A DNA stretch of 64,000 bases from an uncultured Gammaproteobacteria bacterium (GTDB lineage Bacteria > Patescibacteriota > Patescibacteriia > Magasanikbacterales > GWA2-37-8), in contig CAYHBZ010000002.1 in the NCBI GenBank assembly GCA_964355175.1, positions 396,537 to 460,536 on the forward strand, given 5' to 3'. Shown in pieces: positions 7,926 through 58,947 of the stretch. Made by a program: the position numbers and the translations under genes. Below the pieces are notes generated by a model. It saw nothing but the letters and a program-made list of their open reading frames with translations, made no database searches and had not been told where the DNA came from. Position 1 is the first letter of the stretch. Each line of letters opens with the position of its first letter.

Positions 7926-7954
7926 TTGACAAAATTCGTAGATGGTGCTATACT
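7926..7954 (+). promoter_or_regulatory. sigma70-like promoter upstream of cassette A
   Basis: TTGACA (7926-7931), 17-nt spacer, TATACT (7949-7954). Confidence 0.5.
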
Positions 7955-8072
7955 AATCAGTTAAAATCAAATTTAACACCACGAATTATTGCGCCAGGTT
8001 TTGAGAGAGGCCCTAGCAATACATATAGACAGCTAGGTTAATTCTCTCTCAAAGGAGAATTTTTTACTTGTC

Positions 8073-8084
8073 GTTCTTTACAAT
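8073..8084 (+). promoter_or_regulatory. GTTCTTTACAAT box, copy 1 (followed by long leader hairpin, about 8093-8140)
   Basis: Exact 12-mer shared with 8941-8952 and 10397-10408. Confidence 0.5.
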
Positions 8085-8245
8085 AAATAGTGCTGAGCCC
8101 ACATGAGATCAAGAATTTCTTGATTTGATGCGGGTTCAGTGCACACAGCATTGACGTCCTCCGCGATTTTGCGGATTCGTTCAGTGCTGCGTACTGCAGC
8201 CAGGTCACGCGCCCACCTCAGTGGCGTTTCGTTCAGGAGTTTCCG

Positions 8246-8779
8246 ATGACCACCGCAAAGCACCCCGATCCGAACCATCCGGACCCCGGCACCACCGAAG
8301 AGCCCGTCGTCGACAAGGCGAAGGGCGACACGGTGGTGACCACGACGACCACCACGAGCGTTTCGTCGGCCGAGCCCATCAAGGCAAAGCCGGTGGCGAC
8401 CACCGACACCACGGCTGGCAAGACGGCGACCCAAGAGCCCAAGAAGGGTGGCTGGCCGCTCGGGACCATCGCCGGAGCTGTCGTGCTCGGTCTTCTGCTC
8501 CTCGGCGGCGTCTACTGGTTCGGCAGCCACAACAGCAGCACGCCGGTCGTCCCGCCCATCGCGGTCGCCGGTTGCTGTCTTCCCCAGGCCACCGTCGCGA
8601 GCCCCTGCTGCCCGCAACCGCCGGCTCCGCCCCCGCCGCCCGCCCCCGTCGTCAAGAAGAAGACGGTCGGCGAGTGCGTCGCCCAAGCCGTCGCCGGCAT
8701 GGAGGTCGCCCATGAGGACGACCGCCTCGCCGCGATGGACGGCGCCCGCGAAGAATGCGAGGAAGAATACGGCAAGTAG
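8246..8779 (+). CDS. GC-rich cassette A: bitopic membrane protein (Thr/Pro-rich N-terminal region, one TM, Cys/Pro-rich C-terminal region), no recognised family
   Basis: AGGAG 6 nt before ATG; strong G/C at codon position 3 in this frame only; TM WPLGTIAGAVVLGLLLLGGVYWF preceded by KKGG. Confidence 0.65.
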   Translation: MTTAKHPDPNHPDPGTTEEPVVDKAKGDTVVTTTTTTSVSSAEPIKAKPVATTDTTAGKTATQEPKKGGWPLGTIAGAVVLGLLLLGGVYWFGSHNSSTPVVPPIAVAGCCLPQATVASPCCPQPPAPPPPPAPVVKKKTVGECVAQAVAGMEVAHEDDRLAAMDGAREECEEEYGK

Positions 8780-8940
8780 CCGTTCCTGTCTCGCGTCGCT
8801 ATGTCGGTTCGGCGGGCCCTCAGCAATGAGGGTCCGCCGGCCGACTGGCTCGAATAGGACCTTTGTAGATTCCACTAGGGAAACTCCAAAGGTCCCCTAG
8901 ATTACATTCTTTTGGAAACAAGAGGATGTTGATAGGAAAA

Positions 8941-8952
8941 GTTCTTTACAAT
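8941..8952 (+). promoter_or_regulatory. GTTCTTTACAAT box, copy 2 (TTGATA 12 nt upstream)
   Basis: Exact 12-mer; about 35 nt upstream also similar to the copy 3 region. Confidence 0.5.
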
Positions 8953-9196
8953 TAAAACCAACAAAATTTTTTCCCACCTAAAAAGAATTATTATTTATAG
9001 TAATTCACTCTCGGTGGGAAAAAGTGTGGCGGAAATTCCGTTGCATAGCCTCCGACAGAGTCCCAATTGGGGCAAGTGCCCCGCGTGCGGGCTACTCTGT
9101 TACAGCGACCATTTCTGGGAAGCTGACCGAACGGCCCGCACGGCCGGTGTTCCAGTGTCTTGGTTTCGTGGGGTGAAAGTCCCCTGGAGTACAGCG

Positions 9197-10192
9197 ATGA
9201 ACAAGAATTCGAAGTTCCACAACCTCAGCATCTTGCTGACCCTGGCCATGGGGATCATGGTCGCTTCCAATTCCTACGCCGACGTGGCCACGGCTCGCGC
9301 TCGTGCCGAAGCCGCTCGTAGCCAGGCCAATCGGGCTGAGGTGAAAGCGGTCGACGCACAGACTGCGGCCAACGCGGCCAAGACCGGCGCCACCAACGCC
9401 CAGACCGCGGCCGATCAGGCCAAGGTCGAAGCGACCGCGGTGGGCACCAAGGCGGCCACTGACCTCGCTACGGCGATCCGCGCCCTCAACGGTGCGGTCG
9501 GCGGTGCGCGTGCGGCAGCGGTCAACGGTGATCGTCAGCTCGAGCGCAAGTTCAAGGCGGAGGCCGAGCGCCTTCAGACCGAGATCGAAGCGCTCAAGAA
9601 GCGGGCGCAGCACGAGTGTGCGGCGTTCGATGACAAGGGCAGCCAGGCGGCCTGTCTGACCATGCTCGAGAAGATCAACGCCAAGAACGGCGAAGTCACC
9701 ATGCACGGGCAAGACAAGGACACGGAGGTCCAGATCGCCAAGGTGGGACAGCAGTCCAAGGTGGTCCAGGAGATCTTCGACAACGCAAACCAAAACATGG
9801 ACGCCATCAAGGCGATCCAAATGGGTTGCGTCAACCAGGCCTTCGTCGACAAGGACGGCGTCAGCAAGAGCAAGTGGGAATGCCCCAAGGACATGAAGCG
9901 CGGCCCGCAGTTGCGCTACGAGCTCACGAACGTCTCGAAGTACGGCGACCACAGCGTCGTCATCGAGCCGGCCGAGAGCGGTGGCAATTCCAAGTGGGGC
10001 AAAGTGCTCGGCTTCGGCGCCATCGGTGGTGCTGCTGGCGGTGCTCTTGGCTGGGCCTTCTTCCCGAACCATGAAACCATGGAAGATGGCAGCGTCATGC
10101 ACCGGAATTACACCGGTCTCGTCGCTGGCACGGCCATCGGTTTCGTGGTCACGGCGGTGGCCACCCTGGTCATCGAAGAACTGACCGAATAG
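9197..10192 (+). CDS. GC-rich cassette B: secreted Ala-rich coiled-coil protein with C-terminal Gly-rich hydrophobic anchors, no recognised family
   Basis: GGAG 7 nt before ATG 9197; signal-peptide-like MNKNSKFHNLSILLTLAMGIMVASNSYA; GC3-biased frame; 9014-9196 treated as 5' leader. Confidence 0.65.
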   Translation: MNKNSKFHNLSILLTLAMGIMVASNSYADVATARARAEAARSQANRAEVKAVDAQTAANAAKTGATNAQTAADQAKVEATAVGTKAATDLATAIRALNGAVGGARAAAVNGDRQLERKFKAEAERLQTEIEALKKRAQHECAAFDDKGSQAACLTMLEKINAKNGEVTMHGQDKDTEVQIAKVGQQSKVVQEIFDNANQNMDAIKAIQMGCVNQAFVDKDGVSKSKWECPKDMKRGPQLRYELTNVSKYGDHSVVIEPAESGGNSKWGKVLGFGAIGGAAGGALGWAFFPNHETMEDGSVMHRNYTGLVAGTAIGFVVTAVATLVIEELTE

Positions 10193-10396
10193 GTCAACGG
10201 GTGAGGAGATCACCCCAAAGGATTGCAAGTGTGTTGGTTCACTTGCGCCAAATCTCGGTGTAGCTTATCTTGTCCCGCATTCGCGGTACGAGAGAAAGTT
10301 CACTAAACCGGTGGCGTGAACGATGGCTCAAATAGAGCTGTCGGTCACGCCCCAACAACTATCTTCTGTTTTTCAAACAGGGGATTGAGTTGGTAA

Positions 10397-10408
10397 GTTC
10401 TTTACAAT
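10397..10408 (+). promoter_or_regulatory. GTTCTTTACAAT box, copy 3 (TTGAGT 12 nt upstream; followed by hairpin, about 10426-10476)
   Basis: Exact 12-mer. Confidence 0.5.
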
Positions 10409-10641
10409 TTATTTCGTTAGATTTTCTCATACAGGACATAGGATATTTTTTGTATCTTGTGTCCTGTGTGAGAAGCCCCCAGTGGGGGTTGCCTGGGTGA
10501 AAACCCGACTAGGTCGGGGCGTTCGCTCCGGCAATTCCTCACTAGGGTGGTAAAAACGCCATCCGGACGGGTCAACTTCGACCTTTTCGGTAAAGTAGCA
10601 GTGTCTTTCTTTGTCCGCCCTTTAGTGGGCCGGAGGTTCTG

Positions 10642-12063
10642 ATGCGTAACCGGTTTCAATTGGTCGCGACTCTCGCGATGGCGGCTGCAGCCTGTGCAGC
10701 GTGTGGTGTCATCGAACATCCGGCCGATGCGGTCGTGATCGTGGTCGAAAAAGACGCCAGCAGCCAGGATGTCCAGCAGGACAACGGTCCGGCGCAGCAG
10801 CCCGAGATCGCGCAGACGGCCGACATCGCGCAGGACAACGGTCCGGCGACGAAGCCTGAGTGCGCGGTCGACAGCGACTGCGACGACAAGAACCCCTGCA
10901 CGACGGACGTCTGCGGCAGCAACGCCTGCGTCCACGTGGCCAACTCGGTCTCGTGCGACGACGGCAACGCCTGCACCAGCAACGACAAGTGCGGCTCCGA
11001 GAAGTGCTCGGGTGACCAGAAGGTCTGCGACGACAACAACCCCTGCACCGACGACGGCTGCGTCAGCGACGGCACCTGCCTGCACGGCGTCAACATCGTC
11101 AACTGCGACGACAGCGACGCCTGCACGGAAAAGGACCAGTGCGCCAACGGTAAGTGCGTCGGCCAGGTGAAGTCGTGCGACGACAAGGACAACTGCACGA
11201 CGGAATCGTGTGACAAGCTCAACGGGTGCTCGTCCACTCCGGTCGTCTGCCAGGACGCCGGGGATCCGTGCACGACGGAATCGTGCGACAAGGCAACGGG
11301 CAAGTGCTCGTCCACCACCGACTGCGACGACAAGGACGTCACCACGTTGGATGCCTGTGAACCGCTGCTCGAGACCGTGGGAATGGAGAAATGCCTCCAC
11401 ATCAAGATGCAGACCAAGTGCACCAAGAATGCGGATTGCGACGAGGACGGCGATCCGTGTTCGTTCGAGTTCTGTTCCCAGATCGGCTACTGCGCCAGCA
11501 AGTGGAAGTTGTGCGATGACGGAGACTACTGCACCCAGGACGAATGCGTCCCTCAGGCCGACTACGCCTGGTGCAAGAGCACTCAATACTCATGCGACGA
11601 CTACAACGCCTGCACGCTGGACTCCTGCACCAACGGCTACTGCCAACACAAGGGCAACGCCGCCATGTGCGACGACAAGGACTCCACCACCGCCGACTCG
11701 TGCAACCCTTCCCAGGGCTGCGTCAACACGCCGATTCCTCAACCCGGCGTGCCGAGCTCGACTCCTCCCTCGAATCCCTCGACCTGTGCGGCCTGGGGAG
11801 CGTGGATTTACTTGCCCACGGGCAACTGGCGCGGCGGCTATGACCTGACCGGTTCGTCTTCGCAAGAAACGGACCTGACAATCAGCGTCGACCAGTGGTA
11901 CGGCTTCAGCAACGCTCATTCTGTGTGGGCGTGGCTCAAGCCGTGGGGCAGTGCGGTACCGGCAAGCGTCAAGTGCACTGATCGGTGTGGTGTGGTCTTC
12001 CCCGCGAAGATCAGTGCCATGGCGGGTGGCTTCATCGCCATCTGCAGCACCGACCAGAAGTAG
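10642..12063 (+). CDS. GC-rich cassette C: Cys-rich repeat lipoprotein/secreted protein (tandem C-D-D-x-N-x-C-T-x-D-x-C units, Dicty_CTDC-like)
   Basis: GGAGG 5 nt before ATG; N-terminus MRNRFQLVATLAMAAAACAAC (signal/lipobox-like); 12 or more repeats of ~24 aa with spaced Cys; unrelated ~120-aa Trp-rich C-terminal domain. Confidence 0.75.
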   Translation: MRNRFQLVATLAMAAAACAACGVIEHPADAVVIVVEKDASSQDVQQDNGPAQQPEIAQTADIAQDNGPATKPECAVDSDCDDKNPCTTDVCGSNACVHVANSVSCDDGNACTSNDKCGSEKCSGDQKVCDDNNPCTDDGCVSDGTCLHGVNIVNCDDSDACTEKDQCANGKCVGQVKSCDDKDNCTTESCDKLNGCSSTPVVCQDAGDPCTTESCDKATGKCSSTTDCDDKDVTTLDACEPLLETVGMEKCLHIKMQTKCTKNADCDEDGDPCSFEFCSQIGYCASKWKLCDDGDYCTQDECVPQADYAWCKSTQYSCDDYNACTLDSCTNGYCQHKGNAAMCDDKDSTTADSCNPSQGCVNTPIPQPGVPSSTPPSNPSTCAAWGAWIYLPTGNWRGGYDLTGSSSQETDLTISVDQWYGFSNAHSVWAWLKPWGSAVPASVKCTDRCGVVFPAKISAMAGGFIAICSTDQK

Positions 12064-12330
12064 GCGGGGCTCAGGGGGTCTAACGGAAAAAGTTTTTGCT
12101 CTTTGGTAAAAGCAAACGGAAGGAGGTGTTCCTTTCGATAGGCCATTTCGGCCACCCATGCCAGAGGCGAGCGATCGCTAAAGGCTGGTCAACTAGGGGT
12201 GGTGTTGCTTCACCGCACACCACCCCGACCATCTCTAGCTCACAATATCTGTTGTGATCTGAAGATGGAAATAGCAATATGTCCATGACAAAAATACCAC
12301 CCTTCTCTCGGGCGGTTTTTTGTTTTTTAA

Positions 12331-18125: not shown

Positions 18126-18154
18126 TTGACAGGCGCTGGTTTTTTTGATTTAAT
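18126..18154 (+). promoter_or_regulatory. sigma70-like promoter of cassette D
   Basis: TTGACA, 17-nt spacer, TTTAAT; same hexamers as cassette E promoter. Confidence 0.55.
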
Positions 18155-18306
18155 AATAAGTCGTTTGTTCTTTATTTGGCAGGATAATTTTGGATTAAAA
18201 TTTTTAATTCAGAGTTATCGTGCCAACTTTCTCAATGCGTGTCGGCGAAATGCGTCGATATGTAAAGAGAGGTGCGAGAGCCTACATGGTAGGCAGGAGA
18301 GCAGGA

Positions 18307-19122
18307 ATGGCAGACAGCAGCCACAACGTTACTCAGGTCGGCATCACCGTCGGGCCGCCCAACGCCGATCTCGGCAGTGTGGTGGTTCGTCAGGAGGCGG
18401 CCAGGGCGGATCTCAATGAGCGGCGTACGCATCTCAGCTTGGTTGTCAAGCCCTCGGTCGATGATCTGGTCGCGCGGCTGAATGTCGAGCGGCAGGAAGT
18501 CGACCGCATCGGCGCGCTGGTCGATGCGGTAGAGCGCGAACAGGCGAAGAGCGTCAAGCACTTCGAATCGACGCTCGGCGGGCAGGCGCGGCTCTGGAAG
18601 AAGGGTTTCGACGCCCATGAGCGCTCGATCTTCTGGGTCAAGCTCCTCGGCGTCGTCGGCCTGGTCCTGGTCGGTATCGTCCTGGTCCTGAACCTGTCGT
18701 CCTCCTCGGACATCTCCACGGCCAAGTCGGAAGCCATCTCGGCCAAGACCACCGTGGCGGAGTTCAAGAAGGCCACCCAAGGCGAGGTCGTCAAGATCAA
18801 GAAGAGGCTCGATGCCAACAAGCTCGACATGGATCAGCTCAAGGATCAGATCAAGGTCGTCGGGCTCAAGGCTGACAAGAGCGTCGTCACTCGCATGGGC
18901 GAAGAGCTCAAAGAAGCCAACATCGAGCAGGACGGTCGGATCCAGGACATCGCCACCGCGATCATGGGCAAGGCCGACATAGCCGATCTCAAGAGCGTGA
19001 GGAGCGCAGTCGCGCAGGTTCGCCGGGCCAACGGCAAGGTGAACACGAAGATGACCAGGCTCGAAGCTCAGGTCCTGGAGCTCAAGGCCCAACTCCAGGC
19101 CCAACAGCCCAAGACCATGTAG
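18307..19122 (+). CDS. GC-rich cassette D: bitopic membrane protein with extracytoplasmic coiled coil, no recognised family
   Basis: AGGAGA 6 nt before ATG 18307; TM WVKLLGVVGLVLVGIVLVLNL; heptad-like K/D/L-rich C-terminal half; GC3-biased frame. Confidence 0.65.
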   Translation: MADSSHNVTQVGITVGPPNADLGSVVVRQEAARADLNERRTHLSLVVKPSVDDLVARLNVERQEVDRIGALVDAVEREQAKSVKHFESTLGGQARLWKKGFDAHERSIFWVKLLGVVGLVLVGIVLVLNLSSSSDISTAKSEAISAKTTVAEFKKATQGEVVKIKKRLDANKLDMDQLKDQIKVVGLKADKSVVTRMGEELKEANIEQDGRIQDIATAIMGKADIADLKSVRSAVAQVRRANGKVNTKMTRLEAQVLELKAQLQAQQPKTM

Positions 19123-19185
19123 TCCGTTCCCGATCTGTTCGGGCACTTGTAGTTTAGCCTTGATTTCTGAAGGCAAAAGCTCGGT

Positions 19186-19300
19186 GAGGACGCAAAATCC
19201 CCCCAAGGGTGTGTCGTTTACTCGACACTACCTGCTTAGTTCGCAAAAAATTGTTTGCTGAGCAGAATAAAAAATCCGCTATTATGGTGGATTTTTTAAT
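19186..19300 (+). repeat. 3' repeat R1, copy 1 (three hairpins, the last a terminator)
   Basis: About 80% identical to 20118-20238; bulged hairpin GGTGTGTCG-TTTACT-CGACACTACC; ends AAAAAATCCGC...GGTGGATTTTTT. Confidence 0.6.
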
Positions 19301-19330
19301 CTAAAATATGCTGTTTTTAGGTCAGTAGTA

Positions 19331-19359
19331 TTGACAAAGTAGGATTTTTATGTTTTAAT
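19331..19359 (+). promoter_or_regulatory. sigma70-like promoter of cassette E
   Basis: TTGACA, 17-nt spacer, TTTAAT. Confidence 0.55.
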
Positions 19360-19504
19360 AGTTCATTAGATTGTTCTTTTTAATCAATTCGCGCGACAAT
19401 TATAAATTAAAATTTTTCAATTTATAATCGTCGTGCGAATTTCAGTTTATCAATGACGGCCAGTCGGAGGTTCCGATTGGTTCAGCTCTTTCTGCGAGGT
19501 GAGC

Positions 19505-20074
19505 ATGGTTGATTTCAATCCCCCGGATCCAGTGGATCCAGAGAAGAAAAAGAAGCCTTCGTCGGCTGTGGAGACAGACCACAATTGGGAAGCCTGGGCC
19601 AACGATAATTCGGTCGATGACGGCAGTCATCCTCTGCCTGGTGAAGCCGAATACGTCGGACGGTCCGACCTTCCCATGACACGGGCACAGAAAGAGCGCA
19701 TCGCCGCGATCGTAGTCGGTACGGCCTTCCTGGTGTTGGTTTTCTTTGTCATCAATTTCGCTATCGGCAACAAGCTCAAGCATTCTGAAGCGGCCTCGTC
19801 CAACGAGGCTGGCAAGCAGAGCGCTCAGGCAAGTGCCGAAGTAGAATTGAAGGCAGAAGAAGCCGCCTCAGAGCAGGATCATACGGTCTCGCTGCCGGAT
19901 CACGCTTCGCAGGAAGATGATCTGGACGATGCTCGCGCGACCATCAAGGTCGTCGGTTTGGAGAAACGGCGCGTTCGAGATCCAGAGATGGAGCGGATCG
20001 CCGCAACCATCAAGATCGTGCCACTGCGTGTCAGTCCTGTCGCGGTACCGCTTCCAGCGGCCGCTACTCAGTAG
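19505..20074 (+). CDS. GC-rich cassette E: bitopic membrane protein with acidic C-terminal region, no recognised family
   Basis: GAGGTG just before ATG 19505; TM IAAIVVGTAFLVLVFFVINFAIG preceded by RAQKER; GC3-biased frame. Confidence 0.6.
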   Translation: MVDFNPPDPVDPEKKKKPSSAVETDHNWEAWANDNSVDDGSHPLPGEAEYVGRSDLPMTRAQKERIAAIVVGTAFLVLVFFVINFAIGNKLKHSEAASSNEAGKQSAQASAEVELKAEEAASEQDHTVSLPDHASQEDDLDDARATIKVVGLEKRRVRDPEMERIAATIKIVPLRVSPVAVPLPAAATQ

Positions 20075-20117
20075 TAGTCAAACATACTTTGAACCTAAAA
20101 GTGTGTGAGACTCCTGA

Positions 20118-20238
20118 ACAGGACAAAAAATCCCCAAAAGGGTGTGCCGACTGAAAAGTCGGCACTACCTGCTTAATCAATAAAACATTGTTTATTGAGC
20201 AGAATAAAAAATTCACTTTGAAAGGTGGATTTTTTAAT
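20118..20238 (+). repeat. 3' repeat R1, copy 2
   Basis: Same three-hairpin layout as 19186-19300; stem 1 differs by paired substitutions (GGTGTGCCGAC / GTCGGCACTACC). Confidence 0.6.
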
Positions 20239-20245
20239 TAGTTTT

Positions 20246-21136
20246 TTATTGTCCGGTAATTAGGCACGCTACCGGTCCGTTAAATTTCCAATTATTTTTT
20301 ATGGCTTGATGTAATCCTGCCACGGCCAAAGCGCTGTTGGGTGAAAGTTTTATTTTTTCTGTTCTAGATGTCAGTTGTATTGCTGAGGTTATTTCTGTAT
20401 TGCCGGCTACCCAACCAAACCCACGATTTTGTTTTAACGCTTTTAGTACGGCTGGTTTTCTGAGTGCGATTTTATCCACTATCGCTGTTGCCAGAGATTC
20501 ATTTTCTATTTCACAGCGTAATTGTGAAAAATTTTGCGCCATTGGATGTACTGATGCGGTCTGTACTATATGTATCTGAATTTTTAATTTTAATTTTTTA
20601 AATCCTTCGTCGAGACCCAGAGCGGTAGTACCAGAAGAAGTCGGCACAAACACCGCGGACAGGTTTTTTATTTTGGATAATTCTTTGGCCAGTTCAAAAT
20701 ATCCAAGTAGAGCGATGTCATCGGTCGATTGACGCAGCCATAGCGCTCGATTATTTTTTTCTAACTGAAAAGCGGATTGTTTGGGTTTTTTTATTTGGGT
20801 CAGAGTGATATTTCTATCCACTAGTTTTTGTAATTTTTTTAGTTTGGCTAAATCTATTTTTTCACCCACAAAGATTTGCAGAGTAATTTTATTTTTACTT
20901 TTCTGGTTCAGTTTTTTGATATAGAACGCGCTGGCGAGAGCCGCGTTGCCGGAAGACGAAACTACAAAATCCTTTGTCCCTGTTTTGAGGTGAGCATCAA
21001 TCATGATTGGCAAAGAGCGGCCCTTGTGTGACAGTAGCGGGTGTAGATCTTCACGCTTAAAATACAGCGGCTGTGAGAGGCCGATGGTCTGGGCTAATTT
21101 GGGATGTTTGGTTTGGGGAGTGAGCATACTTGCCAA
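20246..21136 (-). CDS. PLP-dependent enzyme, Trp-synthase beta-like fold (threonine synthase/cysteine synthase-like)
   Basis: LLSHKGRS (Lys) and VSSSGNAALA motifs typical of PALP-family enzymes. Confidence 0.55.
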   Translation of the reverse strand: MASMLTPQTKHPKLAQTIGLSQPLYFKREDLHPLLSHKGRSLPIMIDAHLKTGTKDFVVSSSGNAALASAFYIKKLNQKSKNKITLQIFVGEKIDLAKLKKLQKLVDRNITLTQIKKPKQSAFQLEKNNRALWLRQSTDDIALLGYFELAKELSKIKNLSAVFVPTSSGTTALGLDEGFKKLKLKIQIHIVQTASVHPMAQNFSQLRCEIENESLATAIVDKIALRKPAVLKALKQNRGFGWVAGNTEITSAIQLTSRTEKIKLSPNSALAVAGLHQAIKNNWKFNGPVACLITGQ

Positions 21137-33793: not shown

Positions 33794-34000
33794 ATCGGAT
33801 ATTCTATCAGAAATAAGGGTATTTTACAAGGAATAAAAAATACCCTACCAAAGGTAAAGTATTTTTATAATAATGCCTATTTTACCGAGATCTCCTGTTA
33901 AATTTTTACCAATATATTTGATAAAGATTTAGCATTGGGAGATCTTGGTGGACCGCGACCTCCCAACGCCAGACTTGCGTCGGTCTGTCGGTAGGCGAGT

Positions 34001-34354
34001 CTACCAGGCGCCCATGGGCTGAGACGTAGGCTTGGCGACTTCCAGTTCCTGGGCCGTGGCCAGACGCGCTCCGGCACAGGTGCCCAGCACCCACTGGATC
34101 ACGAGCAGGTCACCGACCTTGGTCTCCTTGGGGACGAACAACGGGAAGCCGCTGCGGTCCTCGTCGGCTCCGCGCTTGTGTTCGTTCTCTGCGAAGTAGC
34201 GATGGCCGCTCTTGTCGCTACGTCCGAGCACGTAGAAGATCGGAGTCTCCGGATGCTGGTCGGCGTTGTTGCTGTCGCGACGGATGAGTTTGCCTTGGGG
34301 TACAAAGATACCGACACCGGTTTCGAGCCGGAAGACACCGTGAAAGATAAGCAT
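34001..34354 (-). CDS. GC-rich cassette F: 117-aa soluble protein, no recognised family
   Basis: AAGGA 6 nt before ATG; GC3-biased frame on minus strand; own promoter and leader hairpin. Confidence 0.6.
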   Translation of the reverse strand: MLIFHGVFRLETGVGIFVPQGKLIRRDSNNADQHPETPIFYVLGRSDKSGHRYFAENEHKRGADEDRSGFPLFVPKETKVGDLLVIQWVLGTCAGARLATAQELEVAKPTSQPMGAW

Positions 34355-34401
34355 TGATTGTCCTTGAGTTGCATCAACCGAAACGCTCGGCTGATATGAT
34401 G

Positions 34402-34430
34402 TATATACACTGATTTTAGCAAAAAGTCAA
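34402..34430 (-). promoter_or_regulatory. sigma70-like promoter of cassette F
   Basis: Minus strand TTGACT (34430-34425), 17-nt spacer, TATATA (34407-34402). Confidence 0.5.
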
Positions 34431-43541: not shown

Positions 43542-43616
43542 GGCCCGTTCGTCTATCGGCTAGGACATGGCCTTCTCAAGGCTAGAAGAGGGGTTCGACT
43601 CCCCTACGGGCTACCA
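43542..43616 (+). tRNA. tRNA-Glu (anticodon CUC), CCA encoded
   Basis: Hand-folded cloverleaf: acceptor GGCCCGT/ACGGGCT, anticodon loop TTCTCAA, T-arm AGGGG-TTCGACT-CCCCT, 3' ACCA. Confidence 0.85.
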
Positions 43617-44336: not shown

Positions 44337-44682
44337 AGATGTTTAAATTTAATACTTGTTTAATATTTAAAGTGGACGCCTGATTGGATAACCTGTCAAG
44401 GATTCACATCGGTATGGTTGCTTTATTAGTGGAGTTTTTTTAATCTCAGAAAGCTTCACGTCTTTCCGTTGACTTTTCAAAATACTGTTATCATTGACAG
44501 GTTTCCGTTTTAGATATATAATTGAATAGTTAAACAAGTATTTAATTATAATTATCTATGCTCGATGATAAAGAATTGCGAAAAGCACGCCGGATACTGA
44601 GCAAAACTAATAAAAACATGGCGGTGGCATTAAAGATAGCATAAGAGAGTGGATTTAGTAGCTAATTAATTGAAATTATTAT

Positions 44683-45738
44683 ATGAAAAAAAGTAAAAAA
44701 ACAGCAGTGTTCTTTCTAGTAGCCCTTTCGTTCGCGCTTGGGCTTGTCGGTCCACTGGCCGCATTGGCTGGTCCAACCAAGATTGAACTTTTGTCGGCCG
44801 ATAATTTTGCCATCCTTGCCGGTTCCACCATTACCAACATTGGATCGAGCATCGTTGGCGGAGATCTTGGCTTGAGCCCGGGTACCGCGGTCACCGGGTT
44901 TCCACCGGGAATTGTGAACGGAACCCAGCATGTGGCTAATGCCGTTGCCGCTCAGGCGCAGTTAGATGTCACTACCGCTTATACGACAGCGCTTGGATTT
45001 GCGTCTATTTCCACTATACCAACCGAACTTGGCGGAACGACTAAAACCCCTGGTGTTTATGATTCCGCGGCTGGGACTTTTGGAATCACTGGTACACTAA
45101 CGCTCGACGGTGAGGGTGATGCGAACGCGGTGTTTATTTTTAAAACCGCTACCACTTTTATCATGGCCGCAGGGAGTAAGGTGGTTCTTGTGAACGGCGC
45201 GCAAGCGTGTAACATCGTTTGGCAAGTAGGTAGTTCAGCGACGCTTGGAACAAATTCTACGTTACAAGGCAGTATTCTAGCGTTTACTTCCGCCACGCTT
45301 AATACTGGCGCACATGTCCAAGGGCGAGTATTAGCTCGCAATGGCGCCGTTACTTTAGATTCTAGTACTGTTACCAAAGCTACTTGTGCTGTGCCTGTTG
45401 TGGAACCAATTGTGGTATCAGCGCCTCAGCCCACATCGACTCCTAATTTTTCGACATCCACTCCTACATCCGTGATAATACCATCGTTTTCAACTTCAAC
45501 ATCAATGCCAGCGCCCAGCACAACACCATTGGTATTCTCAGCCACTGTGACAGCTTCGCCTACACTGAATGTTGCTCCGCTTGTGTCTACATTTATTCCT
45601 GATTTTCCCAATACCGGTCTTTCTCCACAAGAGACAAGTATGTGGTGGGGTAGTCGATTGTTTGTCGCTAGCGCGCTTTTGATTTTGACTTTATTGTTGG
45701 TAATCTTAAAAAAACGTTCATCATCTTTGGGTGTTTAA
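44683..45738 (+). CDS. ice-binding-like (DUF3494) surface protein with sortase sorting signal
   Basis: Signal peptide; FAILAGSTITNIGSSIVGGDLGLSPGTAVTGFPPG motif; C-terminal FPNTG plus hydrophobic helix plus KKR. Confidence 0.75.
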   Translation: MKKSKKTAVFFLVALSFALGLVGPLAALAGPTKIELLSADNFAILAGSTITNIGSSIVGGDLGLSPGTAVTGFPPGIVNGTQHVANAVAAQAQLDVTTAYTTALGFASISTIPTELGGTTKTPGVYDSAAGTFGITGTLTLDGEGDANAVFIFKTATTFIMAAGSKVVLVNGAQACNIVWQVGSSATLGTNSTLQGSILAFTSATLNTGAHVQGRVLARNGAVTLDSSTVTKATCAVPVVEPIVVSAPQPTSTPNFSTSTPTSVIIPSFSTSTSMPAPSTTPLVFSATVTASPTLNVAPLVSTFIPDFPNTGLSPQETSMWWGSRLFVASALLILTLLLVILKKRSSSLGV

Positions 45739-45739
45739 T

Positions 45740-46342
45740 ATGTCTAGTCGTGTAAAGATGAGTCTCGTTGCCTTAGTTGTTTTTTTCTTCATTCTCGGCC
45801 TGTCTGTCTCTGAACTCTATACGAAGGTACCTTTGTCCGCAAATACGCTTGCAACCTCGACGCAGTTGATAGTCCCATCAGAGCAAACGCTTCTAGGCTT
45901 GCCGATACATCTCACGATCCCACGGATCCATGTCGATGCCTCCCTTGAATATGTTGGCCTCACAGCGACCGGGGCAGTGGATGTGCCAACAGTGCCAGCG
46001 AATCCAGCCTGGTACTCGCTGGGGCCGCGTCCGGGGCAAACTGGCAGTGCGGTGATTGTCGGGCATTTCGGCTGGAAAAAAGGGATGCCAGCGGTTTTTG
46101 ATGATTTGTCTACTCTGCGTAAGGGCGATAAGTTGTATGTCAAAAATGAACACGGAGCGACTACTACTTTTATAGTACGCGAGTTGCGAAGCTATAGCGC
46201 GCATGACAGTGCTGTGGAGGTATTTAGCTCTAGTGATGGGAAAGCGCATCTGAATTTGATCACCTGTGAAGGAACTTGGAATAAAATTGAGGAGAGTTAT
46301 TCAAAGCGACTGGTGGTATTTGCTGATTTAGAAGATAGATAA
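45740..46342 (+). CDS. sortase (class E/F-like)
   Basis: N-terminal TM; VIVGH His, LITCEG (TLxTC-type Cys) and C-terminal Arg; overlaps end of its likely substrate gene. Confidence 0.8.
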   Translation: MSSRVKMSLVALVVFFFILGLSVSELYTKVPLSANTLATSTQLIVPSEQTLLGLPIHLTIPRIHVDASLEYVGLTATGAVDVPTVPANPAWYSLGPRPGQTGSAVIVGHFGWKKGMPAVFDDLSTLRKGDKLYVKNEHGATTTFIVRELRSYSAHDSAVEVFSSSDGKAHLNLITCEGTWNKIEESYSKRLVVFADLEDR

Positions 46343-55311: not shown

Positions 55312-55312
55312 T

Positions 55313-56116: not shown

Positions 56117-56121
56117 TCACT

Positions 56122-56206
56122 GGAGAGGTCGCATAGTGGCCGAGTGCGCCGCCTTGGAAAGGCGGTATACCGCAAGGTATCGAGGGTTCAAATCCCTCTC
56201 TCTCCG
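56122..56206 (+). tRNA. tRNA-Ser (anticodon GGA), long variable arm, CCA not encoded
   Basis: Hand-folded: acceptor GGAGAGG/TCTCTCC, anticodon stem CCGCC/GGCGG with loop TTGGAAA, 16-nt variable arm, T-arm GAGGG-TTCAAAT-CCCTC. Confidence 0.85.
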
Positions 56207-56244
56207 CTGGGTCACGCTTATATGAGCAAAGGGTTCATATTCCA

Positions 56245-56276
56245 AAAACATCTCGACTAAGTCGGGATGTTTTTTT
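56245..56276 (+). terminator. intrinsic terminator after tRNA-Ser
   Basis: AAAACATCTCGACTAAGTCGGGATGTTTTTTT. Confidence 0.65.
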
Positions 56277-56405
56277 ACCAGATAAAAAAATAATTCTTCA
56301 TAAAAACACACCGTCGGGTGTGTTTTTATATTGACAAAAATGTATTTTTAGTATAGGCTCTAGCCTGATCGTTCTCGCGGATTTCTCGCGCTACAGGAGG
56401 ACATC

Positions 56406-56774
56406 ATGGCAGATTCTCTGCCGTTCCAAGAAGATCTGCGTAAGCCATTCCACATCTCAGTCTGCGACCGGATCGCTCTCTGCCTCACGGCAATGAGCAT
56501 CTCCGGTGGAAGGGAGATCCCGCTCGGCATCCAGGAGGTGACCAGAGACCTGGATCTCTTGGACAAGACCAAGGTCCCGGCCAAGGAACTGCCCAGTGTG
56601 ACAAAGGCCCTCTACGGCCTGCGGGTGATGTACGGCCCTCTCATGCCGACGGTTTCTCAGCGCCTGACCCAATCGATCGACCTCTTGGTCGTGTATCAAG
56701 AGGAGCTGGCCGAGGATGGCAAGCTGGATCGCGACCTCGTGTGGTTGCCGCCTGTCGTCGACCCGGTAGCCTAG
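56406..56774 (+). CDS. GC-rich cassette G: 122-aa soluble protein, no recognised family
   Basis: AGGAGG 5 nt before ATG; GC3-biased frame; TTGACA at 56331. Confidence 0.6.
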   Translation: MADSLPFQEDLRKPFHISVCDRIALCLTAMSISGGREIPLGIQEVTRDLDLLDKTKVPAKELPSVTKALYGLRVMYGPLMPTVSQRLTQSIDLLVVYQEELAEDGKLDRDLVWLPPVVDPVA

Positions 56775-56900
56775 CTGGTCTGTAGATTTTCACCCGGTCT
56801 TCGTCTATGTCCGGGTTGAGAGGTGTTCATACACCACTCCGTCCCGACTTAGTCGAGACGTGAATCACCGCAAGGTAGTGACGAGAACATCAGACATTCA

Positions 56901-56970
56901 GACTGTTCGCGCTCACTTAAGATTATAACTTGATTATAGTTTTAAGTGACGAACAGTCTTTTTGTTTTTT
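56901..56970 (+). terminator. long hairpin terminator of cassette G
   Basis: AGACTGTTCG..TCACTTAA-(AT-rich apex)-TTAAGTGACGAACAGTCT followed by TTTTTGTTTTTT. Confidence 0.6.
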
Positions 56971-57041
56971 CTAAAGGATATTTTATAGATACGGATGGCA
57001 ATACTTTTGGTTTGCATCAGCCGGATGAAAAGGCGGCATAA

Positions 57042-57070
57042 TTGACTTTTTTGAATTTAATCGCTAAAAT
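57042..57070 (+). promoter_or_regulatory. sigma70-like promoter of cassette H
   Basis: TTGACT, 17-nt spacer, TAAAAT. Confidence 0.55.
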
Positions 57071-57105
57071 GGTGTTCAGCCATTTTGGCTTTTTGGAGTT
57101 TCGCC

Positions 57106-57327
57106 ATGAGTGTAAAATATCGTCCGGGAACCGGCAGGGAGCCGCGCATCTTCCATGAGAGTATGGGCTTGCCCAGCCGGACGGTCGTTCAGATCGACTG
57201 GTGGACCTGTCCGAACCTGATCGTGAAGGATGAGCAGTTCGGAAATCGCGAACTCTGTGACTTTCAGAACCCGTCTTGGGAACACAAGTGCCAGGGTTGC
57301 GGTGCCGATCGTCCCGATAAGTCCTAG
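57106..57327 (+). CDS. GC-rich cassette H: 73-aa protein with RanBP2-like zinc-ribbon (WWTC...C-x3-N-x6-C-x2-C-GA-x-RP)
   Basis: TGGAG 7 nt before ATG 57106; GC3-biased frame; C-terminal motif shared with cassette I. Confidence 0.6.
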   Translation: MSVKYRPGTGREPRIFHESMGLPSRTVVQIDWWTCPNLIVKDEQFGNRELCDFQNPSWEHKCQGCGADRPDKS

Positions 57328-57335
57328 GAGGACTC

Positions 57336-57362
57336 ATGCGTATCCGCGCACCCCCGCCTTAA
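57336..57362 (+). CDS. putative arrest-type mini-ORF MRIRAPPP*
   Basis: Stop of cassette H embedded in TAGGAGGA; ATG 3 nt after the SD; 8 codons ending RAPPP-stop; homologous to 58764..58793. Confidence 0.4.
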   Translation: MRIRAPPP

Positions 57363-57387
57363 AAAAGGCACAGGGAAGTAGCGGAAT

Positions 57388-57453
57388 AAAAACCGCCGCC
57401 AACCTGTTTTGTTTCCAAATACAATTGGAGATGGGATAGGCTGGCGGTTTTTT
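57388..57453 (+). terminator. long hairpin terminator of cassette H
   Basis: AAAACCGCCGCCAACCTGTTTTGTTTCCAA...TTGGAGATGGGATAGGCTGGCGGTTTTTT. Confidence 0.6.
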
Positions 57454-57455
57454 GT

Positions 57456-57484
57456 TTGACTTCCAGAGAGGGATTTGATAGTTT
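57456..57484 (+). promoter_or_regulatory. sigma70-like promoter of cassette I
   Basis: TTGACT, 17-nt spacer, TAGTTT; -35 abuts the terminator T-run. Confidence 0.45.
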
Positions 57485-57523
57485 TGATGGGCGCAAATTT
57501 CGCGCCAACCAGTGAGGAACACA

Positions 57524-57925
57524 ATGACTTGTGGTCAACGTCGCAAACTGCGTCTTGATATGATCGTGGTCAAGGGCTGGAACGGTCGTCGCCTCTCCAA
57601 GGGGTGTCGGAAGTACATACGCCGTCACCTGCCTCTGGAATGGCAGGCGATCGAGGATCGTGCTCAACAGGAGCGTGAGCTGGTGCGGCAGATCGAGCTG
57701 CACAAGGCGGCTGCTCGCAACAAGCAGACGGCTACGCGGCCGAGCTTCTCCGCGCCGTCGTTCGCTACGGCGAAGCCTGCACCGGTGCCGGTCAAGCCTC
57801 CGCGGGATCCATGGTGGACCTGCAAGGCCGAAACCAAGGGAGGTTATTTCTCCGGCGCCTGCAACGAGCTGAACTACAGTAATACCTCCTGCACCTACTG
57901 TGGTGCGGCTCGCCCGGCAGCGTGA
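57524..57925 (+). CDS. GC-rich cassette I: 133-aa basic protein with C-terminal RanBP2-like zinc-ribbon
   Basis: GAGGA 5 nt before ATG 57524; C-terminus PWWTC..(11)..C-NEL-N-YSNTS-C-TY-C-GAARP, paralogous to cassette H tail. Confidence 0.6.
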   Translation: MTCGQRRKLRLDMIVVKGWNGRRLSKGCRKYIRRHLPLEWQAIEDRAQQERELVRQIELHKAAARNKQTATRPSFSAPSFATAKPAPVPVKPPRDPWWTCKAETKGGYFSGACNELNYSNTSCTYCGAARPAA

Positions 57926-57931
57926 GGAATC

Positions 57932-57958
57932 ATGCACTACTCCACCGGACCGCCTTGA
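57932..57958 (+). CDS. putative arrest-type mini-ORF MHYSTGPP*
   Basis: Stop of cassette I embedded in TGAGGA; ATG 3 nt after; 8 codons ending GPP-stop. Confidence 0.35.
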   Translation: MHYSTGPP

Positions 57959-57988
57959 AATATAGGTGGGCAGGGCGGAGGAAGATTA

Positions 57989-58053
57989 CATCGACCACCA
58001 AACTGCTTTGTATGAAAATTTTTTATATAGAGCAGAGTGGTCGATGTTTTTTT
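57989..58053 (+). terminator. long hairpin terminator of cassette I
   Basis: CATCGACCACCAAACTGCTTTGTAT...ATATAGAGCAGAGTGGTCGATGTTTTTTT. Confidence 0.6.
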
Positions 58054-58064
58054 ATTTGAAATAC

Positions 58065-58093
58065 TTGACAAAAGCTCTATTTTTGTCTATAAT
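58065..58093 (+). promoter_or_regulatory. consensus sigma70 promoter of cassette J
   Basis: TTGACA, 17-nt spacer, TATAAT. Confidence 0.6.
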
Positions 58094-58197
58094 CATTAGT
58101 TAATTAATGGTCATCATATGATGCACGCCCAAAGAGGTTGGTCGTGTTTCATACCGTGATCCGTTAAGGAACATGGGCAACTCGCGTAGGGGGAAAT

Positions 58198-58746
58198 ATG
58201 TTGGAAATCATTTTGGAACCGAAGCTCAAGAACAAGTTCCTGACCGCTCGGGTCAAGGCGCATTGCGGGGTCATGACATGGTCGTTTTGCACCGCTGAAG
58301 GCGGTGTGGCGATCATCGAAGCGTTCGTCCGCGAACGCGTCTGGGGCTGGCAGGAAACTCGTCCGCTCTGCCGCCAGATGGAAGCGACTTTCCCCAAGGA
58401 TGCCAGCAAGTTGGCCGCCTGGCTCAACATGTTCGAGTCCTCCTCGTGCGATGTGGCCGTTCAGCCCATCCATCTCGTGGATCAAGCCGGCGCTTCCCTC
58501 GCTATCAGTGGCAACCAGCTGCATGATGGTGTGGTCGCTACGATCGGTACGGCCGTCTGCATGCTGGATCACTACCTCGTTCGCGGGGTGTTGCGCAACG
58601 GCGACTGCATCTCCGCGACGCAGCAGATGCTCCAGGCTGGCATGACCGACGTCATTTCGGAAAAGGCGTTTCGTGCTTTGACCGGTGGCATTCCGCTGTC
58701 CGGTTTCAACGAGTACGACTACCGTCGGATGGTCGGTCAACTCTAG
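58198..58746 (+). CDS. GC-rich cassette J: 182-aa soluble Cys-containing protein, no recognised family
   Basis: GGGGG 4 nt before ATG; clear GC3-biased frame. Confidence 0.65.
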   Translation: MLEIILEPKLKNKFLTARVKAHCGVMTWSFCTAEGGVAIIEAFVRERVWGWQETRPLCRQMEATFPKDASKLAAWLNMFESSSCDVAVQPIHLVDQAGASLAISGNQLHDGVVATIGTAVCMLDHYLVRGVLRNGDCISATQQMLQAGMTDVISEKAFRALTGGIPLSGFNEYDYRRMVGQL

Positions 58747-58763
58747 TCAAAGAGGAGGAGAAC

Positions 58764-58793
58764 ATGGTTTCTATCCGTGCTCCGCCCCGATAA
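58764..58793 (+). CDS. putative arrest-type mini-ORF MVSIRAPPR*
   Basis: AGAGGAGGAG then 3 nt then ATG, 17 nt after cassette J stop; 9 codons containing IRAPP. Confidence 0.4.
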   Translation: MVSIRAPPR

Positions 58794-58824
58794 AGGGCGA
58801 TAGGAAGGAGTACGGAGACAAAGA

Positions 58825-58888
58825 AAGCCGCGCACCAACCTATTTTGTTTCTAAATTTTTGGAAATAGAATAGGGTGCGTGGCTTTTG
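58825..58888 (+). terminator. long hairpin terminator of cassette J
   Basis: AAAGCCGCGCACCAACCTATTTTGTTTCTAAAT...GGAAATAGAATAGGGTGCGTGGCTTTTGTTTT; homologous to 57388-57453. Confidence 0.6.
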
Positions 58889-58947
58889 TTTTCCCCTATA
58901 CAAAACCTCATTTTTTGTGTAGGATAAGGGTTGATAACTTAATCAAT

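Follow-up and report, generated by a model that had tools for sequence, protein, structure and literature searches.

Ten GC-rich single-gene units in intergenic slots of a Candidatus Magasanikbacteria chromosome: a probable native gene class

The 64-kb stretch of DNA analysed here, called the window throughout, belongs to the chromosome of a member of Candidatus Magasanikbacteria, in the candidate phyla radiation (CPR), and carries ten GC-rich single-gene cassettes, c1 to c10, that sit between housekeeping genes at four intergenic sites. The original prediction, made from the letters alone, took them for moron-like inserted cassettes whose arrival it left unexplained. The relatives do not support recent insertion of foreign units, since they hold homologous and still GC-rich genes in the same slots. 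The ten cassettes are thus very probably native. They would belong to a phylum-wide class of autonomous transcription units, of one gene each, that occupy conserved intergenic slots of Candidatus Magasanikbacteria. Our joint best explanation, to which we give a probability of about 0.5, combines this native class with selection on the mRNA as the cause of its composition.

The units and their counterparts in relatives

A sliding-window profile confirms that the GC steps delimiting the cassettes are sharp at all four sites. The ten open reading frames (ORFs) are all present where they had been placed, although five of them start at an internal ATG of a longer mechanical ORF, and the hand counts given in the original prediction are exact (39 of 60 G+C at 9301-9360, and 21 of 60 at 20581-20640). 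The cassette ORFs have a GC content of 0.56-0.69 and a G+C fraction at third codon positions (GC3, with GC1 and GC2 defined likewise) of 0.62-0.87. For the 49 other genes of the window, GC3 averages 0.396 +/- 0.059 and nowhere exceeds 0.49, which puts the cassettes 3.7-8.0 standard deviations above the host genes, without intermediates. Most cassette ORFs follow the order GC3 > GC1 > GC2, which fits real coding sequence under GC pressure. The transcribed non-coding flanks have a GC content of 0.50-0.62, and the spacers that separate the cassettes, of 0.21-0.42. Long antisense ORFs also run across cassettes, on the minus strand at 8078-8875, 9092-10228, 10417-11586, 18232-19206, 57359-57937 and 58114-58740; we do not take them for overlapping genes, because a high GC3 on the sense strand leaves the antisense frame without T-initial stop codons, and such ORFs are its by-product.

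Contrasts of this kind can be produced by chimeric joins in an assembly, a possibility raised in the original prediction. The cassette proteins and their junctions with the host recur in an NCBI/ENA contig of 953,736 bp, in a second ENA assembly and in Logan assemblies (ERR3856787, ERR3856788, SRR24858483, SRR24858484 and SRR6684601). All the matching assemblies, from at least five sequencing runs, align to the window with 100% identity across the GC steps, which rules out a chimera; no strain polymorphism was seen across five assemblies.

Part of the evidence for a native class comes from synteny. Site 4, which holds c7 to c10, lies between lgt/tRNA-Ser and trhO-sufCBDS. Directly upstream of trhO-suf, three related species carry a c10 orthologue with 85-86% amino acid identity and a GC3 of 0.73-0.74; in these species trhO is 88% and SufB 97% identical. 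In all, c10 has orthologues at this site in 4 species. Next to this orthologue are homologues, GC-rich too, of c9 (66% identity, the orthologue being in L012; labels of this form denote loci of relatives), of c8 (54%, in L010 and L011) and of c7 (31%, at the same site in L010, with a GC3 of 0.72). Over L010-L012, the site-4 homologues of c7-c10 have a GC3 of 0.69-0.74. The ratio of nonsynonymous to synonymous divergence (dN/dS) of c10 is 0.12-0.16, and its dS is 0.45-0.63, against 0.52-1.34 for the flanking host genes: c10 has therefore diverged together with the chromosome.

Sites 1 and 2, with c1-c3 and c4-c5, lie on either side of a surface-polysaccharide cluster (Wzz-like, Wzy_C, radical SAM, GT4 and GHL15 genes) located behind the gene of a giant protein of 1658 amino acids. 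L015, the locus of the nearest species, has a counterpart in every slot from c1 to c4: the first slot contains an ORF of 177 amino acids with the architecture of c1, and the counterparts of c2, c3 and c4 are 28%, 37% and 29% identical to them. In the same comparison, host proteins are 77-87% identical, and the AT-rich control regions between cassettes keep a nucleotide identity of 78-81%, the flanks of c2 being at 81%. A scan with the radical SAM gene, restricted to one genome per species, yields about 40 Magasanikbacteria loci. In most of them, the GC content rises to 0.57-0.70 in islands at the equivalent place, over a background of 0.32-0.50. The islands next to the glycan locus persist down to 51% identity of the marker protein. 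When the ORFs of the GC-rich islands are clustered with BLASTP, one cluster with 32 members takes in both c2 and c3 and covers 24 loci, and the one that contains c4 has 7 members, drawn from 6 loci. One locus, L062 (JACRAK010000032.1), is labelled Candidatus Azambacteria but has the GHL15-GT-GT-Wzy_C synteny of Magasanikbacteria and four genes with CTDC repeats (the family of c3, see below), with a GC3 of 0.70-0.85; this label may be wrong, or the GC-rich trait may reach past Magasanikbacteria. In a Uhrbacteria locus, the GC contrast is only weak.

Vertical inheritance with the same composition across the lineage, the very alternative that the original prediction had named against itself, is thus essentially what the synteny comparison finds.

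Control elements, and gain and loss of units

The architecture of the units is well supported: each has an AT-rich promoter region (TTGAC[AT]-N17 and/or the 12-mer GTTCTTTACAAT), a 5' stem-loop and structured leader, a GC-rich ORF, and GC-rich 3' hairpins followed by an AT-rich terminator (Table 1). The claim that these are autonomous single-gene units, whose composition contrasts with control elements that look host-like, is supported. It had also been claimed that each unit has its own TTGACA-N17 promoter; in the form TTGAC[AT]-N17, this stands for eight of the ten. The pattern TTGAC[AT]-N17-T[AT]NNN[AT] occurs 11 times on the two strands of the window, 8 of them upstream of cassettes and on their coding strand (P about 4e-11); the remaining three are before tRNA-Ser, before an ice-binding-like gene and inside a gene. 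Cassettes c2 and c3 lack the pattern and have the 12-mer. A strict promoter scanner passes only the elements upstream of c1, c8 and c10.

The 12-mer is common to c1, c2 and c3 as an exact copy, and degenerate copies (GTTCTTTA for c4 and GTTCTTTTTAAT for c5) are found directly 3' of the TTGACA promoters of c4 and c5. Allowing at most one mismatch, it has 40 instances in 1.17 Mb of related loci (L014-L053, L062 and L066-L116), and in 26 of the 40 it is followed by GC-rich DNA on the same strand. In most of these 26 cases, a hairpin of 15-25 bp and of variable sequence begins 5-22 nt past the motif. The mean profile around the motif has a GC content of 0.30 at the motif itself, 0.51 by +90, and 0.55-0.62 from +240. 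No conserved -35 element that would partner the 12-mer is visible across these instances; candidate roles for the 12-mer are those of a -10-type promoter element, of an operator or of an RNA motif at the 5' end. In L031 and L029, the 12-mer is followed by lipoprotein genes with a GC3 of 0.30 and 0.51: they are homologous to each other but not demonstrably to c3, and the difference between them lends weak support to a shift of composition in place.

Of the 23 pairs in the 5' hairpin of the c4 family, which includes its duplicate c5, 7 show compensatory changes, and pairing is lost in just 3 of 115 cells; the hairpins of site 1 are visible in single-sequence folds. The leaders of c1-c5, 120-244 nt long, are strongly structured (folding z between -4.9 and -9.2), and that of c10 moderately so (z = -2.9). 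The structured leader claimed for every unit does not extend to c6 and c7, whose leaders are short and not significant. The long hairpin terminators, on the other hand, are found without exception: the ten 3' flanks have z-scores from -4.5 to -9.6, and all of them fold into a long terminal hairpin with a T-run behind it, the GC-containing hairpin plus U-run of an intrinsic terminator. Most of them escape a strict scanner because their loops or stems exceed its limits. No Rfam family was found in the leaders and 3' elements, where the only matches are sub-threshold and of hairpin type.

Directly before the 12-mer of the first cassette, a separate unit of about 100 nt (last row of Table 1) ends in a hairpin and T-run, TTTTGAGAGAG...CTCTCTCAAAGGAGAATTTTTT. 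This unit, which L015 and L016 also have, may be a small RNA, a leader or an attenuator.

Table 1. Positions and properties of the ten cassettes, of the mini-ORFs that follow three of them, and of the unit that precedes c1
Feature	Position	Strand	Elements	Product, GC3 and folding z
Cassette 1	8073..8935	+	12-mer 8073-8084; leader 8085-8245; ORF 8246-8779; 3' flank 8780-8935	177 aa, bitopic membrane protein with Pro/Cys-rich tail; GC3 0.87; leader z = -5.3; 3' flank z = -8.4
Cassette 2	8941..10395	+	12-mer 8941-8952; leader 8953-9196; ORF 9197-10192; 3' flank 10193-10395	331 aa, signal peptide, Ala-rich coiled coil, C-terminal transmembrane (TM) segments; GC3 0.82; leader z = -4.9; 3' flank z = -7.3
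Cassette 3	10397..12330	+	12-mer 10397-10408; leader 10409-10641; ORF 10642-12063; 3' flank 12064-12330	473 aa, lipoprotein-like signal, then Dicty_CTDC Cys-rich repeats; GC3 0.84; leader z = -8.5; 3' flank z = -4.5
Cassette 4	18126..19310	+	TTGACA-N17-TTTAAT 18126-18154; GTTCTTTA at 18167; 23-bp 5' hairpin; leader to 18306; ORF 18307-19122; 3' module 19123-19310	271 aa, N-terminal domain, TM segment, coiled coil; GC3 0.85; leader z = -9.2; 3' flank z = -6.3
Cassette 5	19331..20245	+	TTGACA-N17-TTTAAT 19331-19359; GTTCTTTTTAAT 19373-19384; hairpin leader; ORF 19505-20074; 3' module 20075-20245	189 aa, one TM segment; GC3 0.62; leader z = -6.8; 3' flank z = -8.3
Cassette 6	33835..34430	-	TTGACT-N17-TATATA 34430-34402; short hairpin leader; ORF 34354-34001; 3' hairpin/terminator 34000-33835	117 aa, soluble orphan protein; GC3 0.77; 3' flank z = -6.3
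Cassette 7	56331..56975	+	TTGACA-N17-TAGGCT 56331-56359; ORF 56406-56774; 3' hairpins/terminator 56775-56975	122 aa, soluble; GC3 0.77; 3' flank z = -5.6
Cassette 8	57042..57455	+	TTGACT-N17-TAAAAT 57042-57070 (scanner 10/12); ORF 57106-57327; mini-ORF; terminator to 57455	73 aa, small basic, Zn-ribbon-like C-terminus; GC3 0.69; 3' flank z = -5.9
Mini-ORF after c8	57336-57362	+	preceded by a ribosome-binding site (RBS)	MRIRAPPP*
Cassette 9	57456..58050	+	TTGACT-N17-TAGTTT 57456-57484; ORF 57524-57925; mini-ORF; terminator to 58050	133 aa, small basic, Zn-ribbon-like C-terminus; GC3 0.69; 3' flank z = -7.4
Mini-ORF after c9	57932-57958	+	RBS-preceded	MHYSTGPP* (MRYSTGPP* in the L012 orthologue)
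Cassette 10	58065..58895	+	TTGACA-N17-TATAAT 58065-58093 (scanner 12/12); leader; ORF 58198-58746; mini-ORF; hairpin H1; long terminator to ~58893	182 aa, soluble; GC3 0.75; leader z in text; 3' flank z = -9.6
Mini-ORF after c10	58764-58793	+	RBS-preceded	MVSIRAPPR*
Promoter-hairpin-T-run unit	7926..8066	+	TTGACA-N17-TATACT (scanner 11/12); ~100 nt; terminator-like hairpin	fold z = -3.0

It is well supported that the units multiply by tandem duplication of the whole promoter-leader-ORF-terminator module, and shrink in number by deletion. Cassette c5 is absent from L015; its promoter-hairpin and 3' modules are paralogues of those of c4, and the two ORFs have no BLAST match to each other, so that a whole unit was duplicated in tandem and its ORF diverged fastest. 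The 3' modules of c8, c9 and c10 are likewise paralogous, and c9 may be related to c8, although the BLASTP match between the two proteins is not significant (E = 0.054). Deletion can be seen inside the site-4 array, where positions 56970-57041 are the last 23 codons (SKGYFIDTDGNTFGLHQPDEKAA*) of a glyoxalase-family gene that is intact in L010 (821-1219) and in L011. In L015, the leaders of the c2 and c3 homologues (5290-5345 and 6770-6830) are nearly identical to each other, which suggests recent gene conversion, or concerted evolution of the control modules in the array.

Site 3, between the genes of an aminotransferase and a P-type ATPase, is the variable one. L072 and L073 have an orthologous c6 unit, flanks included, with 41% amino acid identity and a GC3 of 0.84. 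No unit separates the aminotransferase and ATPase genes in L066-L069, L085 and L116, where they are 2-24 bp apart, and in L070 just the terminator and the ATPase promoter are left. In a neighbour-joining tree built on the aminotransferase, c6 is present in each of the two subclades, which favours an ancestral c6 with two deletions over two gains. At the equivalent of this site, L093 (7383-10761) and L094 (7383-10898) have about 3.4 kb of DNA with a GC content of 0.57 and a maximum of 0.71, apparently a larger GC-rich array independent of the c6 unit.

The arrival of the units and their GC-rich cores had both been left unexplained in the original prediction. Vertical inheritance probably accounts for sites 1, 2 and 4, and at site 3 units have been gained or lost among relatives; the GC-richness of the transcribed bodies is taken up in the next section.

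Composition and its possible causes

The codon dialect of the cassettes is almost the reverse of that of the host: AAG accounts for 0.92 of the Lys codons (0.15 in host genes), ATC for 0.91 of the Ile codons (0.25), TTC for 0.85 of the Phe codons (0.17), and only 7% of third positions are A (26%). Yet it follows the host in shunning GGG and in keeping GGT and CGT. The island dialect is consistent over 22 species, with A at 0.07 +/- 0.03 of third positions, and C-ending codons preferred to G-ending ones (GTC > GTG, CTC >= CTG), while typical high-GC bacteria prefer CTG and GTG. The shift touches GC1, GC2, GC3 and amino acid usage.

This composition outlasts the proteins. Between orthologous cassettes, some 60-70% of residues have been replaced (they are 28-41% identical, against 70-87% for host proteins), and both copies have a GC3 of about 0.7-0.85: since the composition is kept despite this turnover, it appears to be maintained in place. 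In 29 species, with islands chosen for a GC3 of at least 0.60, the mean GC3 is 0.79 for the islands and 0.36 for the host genes, the smallest gap being 0.28. Several observations point to the level of RNA, or at least to the avoidance of A/T tracts: among them, the untranslated parts of the units are GC-enriched, the ORFs fold better than shuffles, and their A/T tracts are depleted. Windows of 120 nt in cassette ORFs have a mean folding z of -0.84 (n = 88), compared with -0.16 for the host (dinucleotide shuffles; Mann-Whitney p = 2e-5). The cassettes contain 48 A/T tracts of length at least 4, where shuffles that keep protein and codon usage contain 70.6 +/- 7.3, and only 0.2% of the shuffles are as low; in host genes, such tracts are enriched with respect to synonymous shuffles.

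We thus propose, tentatively, that the cause of the GC-richness is selection for A/U-poor, strongly folded and nuclease-resistant mRNAs made from strong promoters. GC-rich composition would be a property of the transcribed body, maintained in place; selection would favour transcripts from strong promoters that are A/U-poor, highly folded and long-lived; and the 5' stem-loop, the 3' hairpins and the mini-ORFs of RAPP and GPP type at site 4 (next section) would all protect the same transcripts. Stem-loops that stabilise an mRNA at its 5' end are familiar from the ompA and aprE leaders, and the ermC leader stabilises through a stalled ribosome. The cassettes likewise have a predicted hairpin, long, present and covarying, near the transcript start, to which they add strong 3' hairpins; they differ in that their stem-loop is placed by the predicted transcript start only. 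No case is known to us where GC-rich recoding of the whole gene accompanies such a stabiliser.

Several observations weigh against this proposal. The GC3 of islands is nearly independent of that of their hosts (r = 0.34), as a GC-rich external pool would predict, and the repeats of c3 have many relatives in metagenome-assembled genomes (MAGs) of Myxococcota type. Among changes polarised on the terminal branches of five c10 orthologues, G or C was replaced by A or T at 33 third positions, and the reverse happened at 12. This ratio lies between equilibrium (1:1) and free decay (5.5:1), with the caveat that parsimony is biased in the first direction in GC-rich sequence, and the excess means that the upkeep of composition is incomplete. 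The young duplicate c5 has a lower GC3, 0.62, and site 3 is unoccupied in the closest relatives. Part of the folding signal is not strand-specific, the antisense strand of the cassettes having a z of -0.58, and the stem-loop would lie at the 5' end of the transcript only if the predicted start is right. The giant-protein gene evolves fast and has an ordinary GC content, so that the composition takes more than surface exposure and rapid evolution. In favour of the proposal, on the other hand, the dialect of the cassettes does not look like the translationally optimal set. The HU gene, the only gene of the window that is normally highly expressed, differs from them in preferring T in its four-fold boxes (52% T, 8% G) and in using GAA for Glu, in a comparison that rests on 93 codons and is informative just for four-fold boxes, Ile and Lys.

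Some of these observations are what one would expect if the bodies were foreign and decaying, that is, if ancient or recurrent horizontal gene transfer (HGT) from GC-rich donors had filled native expression slots and amelioration were slow. The shift of all codon positions and of amino acid usage is that of genomes with about 65% GC, the GC3 of the cassettes is spread from 0.62 to 0.87, the c10 changes lean towards A and T, site 3 is polymorphic among relatives, and the repeats of c3 have more than 1000 relatives, Deltaproteobacteria and Myxococcota MAGs included. We nevertheless consider HGT unlikely: no donor-like match exceeds about 44% identity, the c10 family has few relatives and c6 none in very large collections (next section), and the same families, slots, native 12-mer and hairpin recur in species where the synonymous sites of host genes have reached saturation. 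New units come from local tandem duplication, and the dialect, with its host habits and its preference for C-ending codons, points the same way. Compared to genomic islands acquired by transfer, the cassettes have the atypical composition, with its sharp contrast in GC and codon usage, and a variable presence at site 3; but homologues occupy sites 1, 2 and 4 in relatives, these slots are inherited vertically, neither mobility genes nor donor homologues are found, and the composition survives the replacement of more than 60% of residues. As had been claimed, the window encodes neither an integrase nor a transposase; it also lacks a reverse transcriptase and any element resembling a diversity-generating retroelement (DGR). 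The accompanying claim that there are no flanking direct repeats needs correction, since paralogous control modules bracket the cassettes, but no att-like duplication of a tRNA end was found. The same facts make truly mobile cassettes, whether phage morons, integron-type cassettes or a tRNA-linked genomic island, the least credible origin. Single-gene units with their own signals, in arrays with hairpin-rich boundaries, one of which abuts tRNA-Ser, do invite the idea. Like morons, the cassettes are autonomous promoter-gene-terminator units that differ in composition from their neighbours; unlike them, they stand outside any phage or prophage, between housekeeping genes, have a native cis-motif, duplicate locally, conserve position and family across the phylum, and have a single match to viral proteins, in a coiled coil, and no relatives on viral contigs (searched for c2, c4 and c10). 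Integron cassettes, and clusters of attC sites lacking an integrase (CALIN), likewise line up single orphan genes in tandem, all facing the same way, with hairpin-forming DNA in between. Here, every unit brings a promoter and a terminator of its own, the window has no IntI, and the hairpins belong to transcribed 5' and 3' untranslated regions (UTRs). Moreover, the sole conserved boundary motif, GTTCTTTACAAT, lies outside the adjacent hairpin, and its GTTCTTT, with pyrimidines at positions 4-6, does not fit the attC core GTTRRRY.

The remaining explanations leave the units native and change the force that acts on them. GC-biased gene conversion (gBGC) would raise GC through biased mismatch repair at recombination hot-spots, fed by exchange between strains or between paralogous modules. 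The paralogous modules are indeed homogenised, as the c2 and c3 leaders of L015 testify, and conserved flanks could anchor recombination around hypervariable interiors. The process has reportedly been proposed for bacteria, with an effect said to be of a few GC3 points, not the 40 or so that are needed here. The GC steps match transcript bodies, leaving promoter and terminator modules AT-rich, the giant-protein gene is equally variable without being GC-rich, five assemblies are free of strain polymorphism, and the depletion of A/T tracts, a matter of context, points to selection: we hold gBGC to be improbable. Control at the level of codons, in which the G/C-ending set is either optimal for very high expression or deliberately rare and tied to particular tRNAs or modifications, seems to us slightly less probable still. 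In its favour, strong consensus promoters are concentrated on cassettes, a tRNA-Glu(CUC) and the tRNA-modifying gene trhO are nearby, and HU shares the C-ending preference for Ile, and also for Phe, Asn and Asp on tiny counts; but non-coding leaders and 3' UTRs are GC-enriched too, GC1 and GC2 have shifted as well, and the four-fold boxes and Glu codons of HU go the other way. There is very little to be said, lastly, for a GC-biased hypermutation or diversification targeted to transcribed bodies, which would produce divergence and composition at once. ORF interiors do diverge far faster than the non-coding control modules, and in c1-c3 the GC-rich and hypervariable segments largely coincide. 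However, c10 is GC-rich and conserved (86% identity, with the low dN/dS given above), the c4 leader is conserved although GC-enriched, the window lacks the reverse transcriptase or DGR-like element mentioned above, and the coding strand has A > T, the opposite of adenine-targeted mutagenesis.

If native units shaped by selection on their mRNAs are retained as the explanation, it is tempting to go further, though on doubtful ground. The units might be a dedicated and compositionally insulated gene class with the 12-mer as its promoter signature, with transcripts whose bodies are recoded away from A/U tracts between a 5' stem-loop and 3' hairpins, and with terminal stalling mini-ORFs in one array. 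In such a class, selection, not ancestry, would hold the genes some 40 GC3 points over genomes with a GC3 of 0.19-0.56, and their mRNAs would survive or be translated when the bulk of AU-rich mRNA is not, for example in dormancy, or in a host-seeking or attachment phase of an episymbiont. In a more radical version, cassette transcripts would function in a GC-rich partner cell. Our literature searches found no description of a native gene class held about 40 GC3 points above its genome and, if true, composition as a regulatory trait of a class of genes would be a new principle. Sharp compositional outliers are routinely scored as recent horizontal transfer; here they are inherited and share native control signals, so that in this CPR phylum such calls would go astray systematically. 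A bias maintained by selection would be an unusually strong case of its action on synonymous and non-coding sites in genomes of about 1 Mb, and would point to control of mRNA stability in organisms not yet cultured.

Products, mini-ORFs and neighbourhood

Eight of the ten products had been said to belong to no recognised family; nine of the ten match no curated family, and the other, c3, carries Dicty_CTDC repeats (Pfam PF00526, E = 5e-25, 87.3 bits against a gathering cutoff of 27, in 5 stretches). Searches of Pfam, NCBIfam, PADLOC and PDB returned nothing else for the cassette products. The sole PHROG match, of c2 to a tail fibre, was discounted because it lies in the Ala-rich coiled coil. 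Cassette c6 has no homologue among 5.8e9 proteins, and a profile search with the c10 family found 6 clusters among 1.84e9 representatives; a structure prediction for c10 from an alignment of 5 sequences had a confidence score (pLDDT) of 34, too low to be used. The many relatives of the c3 repeats, which also include other CPR, carry PF00526 as well and are at most about 44% identical. It is well supported that the product families are limited to this lineage and that most evolve faster than the neighbouring host genes and, equally, that c1-c5 are envelope-anchored or secreted proteins (c1, c4 and c5 being bitopic in the membrane), and c6-c10 small soluble or Zn-ribbon proteins, as predicted from their sequences. 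Across species, TM-like segments are modestly enriched in island ORFs, 60% against 39%.

The vlp/vsa genes of Mycoplasma and msp2 of Anaplasma are fast-evolving multigene arrays of surface proteins in bacteria with reduced genomes. The cassettes resemble them as tandemly duplicated, fast-diverging envelope genes beside loci of surface biogenesis; but those arrays share the base composition of their genome, from which the cassettes are about 40 GC3 points away, and c6-c10 are small soluble proteins. As the fastest-evolving envelope and small proteins of the lineage, the cassette products are obvious candidates for interaction with a host organism.

At site 4, mini-ORFs of 8-9 codons come directly after the stop codons of c8, c9 and c10, just before the long terminator. 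Others follow the orthologues, in L010 (1508 and 2337), L012 (333 and 1161), L064 (1000) and L065 (775). In the loci that were scanned first, all 11 RBS-preceded ORFs of this type come after site-4 cassettes, and there are none in 655 kb of other loci. In five species, the mini-ORF of c10 reads xSIRAPP(R/Q/stop), with IRAPP invariant and an Ala codon that is GCT, GCA or GCC, and the 3' element around it is far more conserved than the synonymous sites of c10. The putative arrest codons form the 5' arm of a hairpin ahead of a terminator hairpin of about 30 bp (z = -7.6).

These peptides resemble ribosome-arrest peptides. The RAPP core supports robust arrest, which EF-P fails to relieve, and the motif is avoided in proteomes (PMC12992588); RAPP-type arrest peptides include ApdA/ApdP and are SecM-like (PMC10951233, PMC12992588), and those described so far are small proteins, secretory or membrane-bound, whose coding sequences precede the genes under their control (PMC12992588). 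The mini-ORFs of c8 and c10 share the exact Arg-Ala-Pro-Pro motif, and the peptide is kept through synonymous changes. They differ from the known cases by their 8-9 codons, by having no sensor or N-terminal domain, and by their location at the 3' end of a gene. The RAPP/RGPP C-terminal core is present after c8 and c10; the type found after c9, STGPP*, has no Arg-Ala or Arg-Gly core, and TGPP is not a characterised core. If ribosomes do stall there, a parked ribosome might protect or mark the 3' end of the transcript, and a known arrest motif would be put into a new and minimal context. The mini-ORF and terminator were also considered as an attenuator of trhO-suf, and set aside, because there is a conserved promoter-like element between them.

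The location between housekeeping genes is borne out at all sites, where the flanking genes include glycan, murein, suf, lgt and tRNA genes. The giant-protein gene (2839-7815) encodes a protein with no Pfam domain, and only 38% identical to its counterpart in L015; in this species, where other host proteins are 77-87% identical, it diverges as fast as the cassettes, yet has an ordinary GC content. At 44494-46342, an ice-binding-like secreted protein (PF11999) followed by a sortase has one of the few consensus TTGACA-N17-TATAAT promoters of the window and, in contrast to the cassettes, an ordinary GC3 of 0.40-0.48. The tRNA-Glu, at 43542-43616 of the window and retained on a contig of about 954 kb, has the anticodon CUC and reads GAG only; GAA makes up 80% of the Glu codons in the host genes of the window, and GAG 53% of those in the cassettes.

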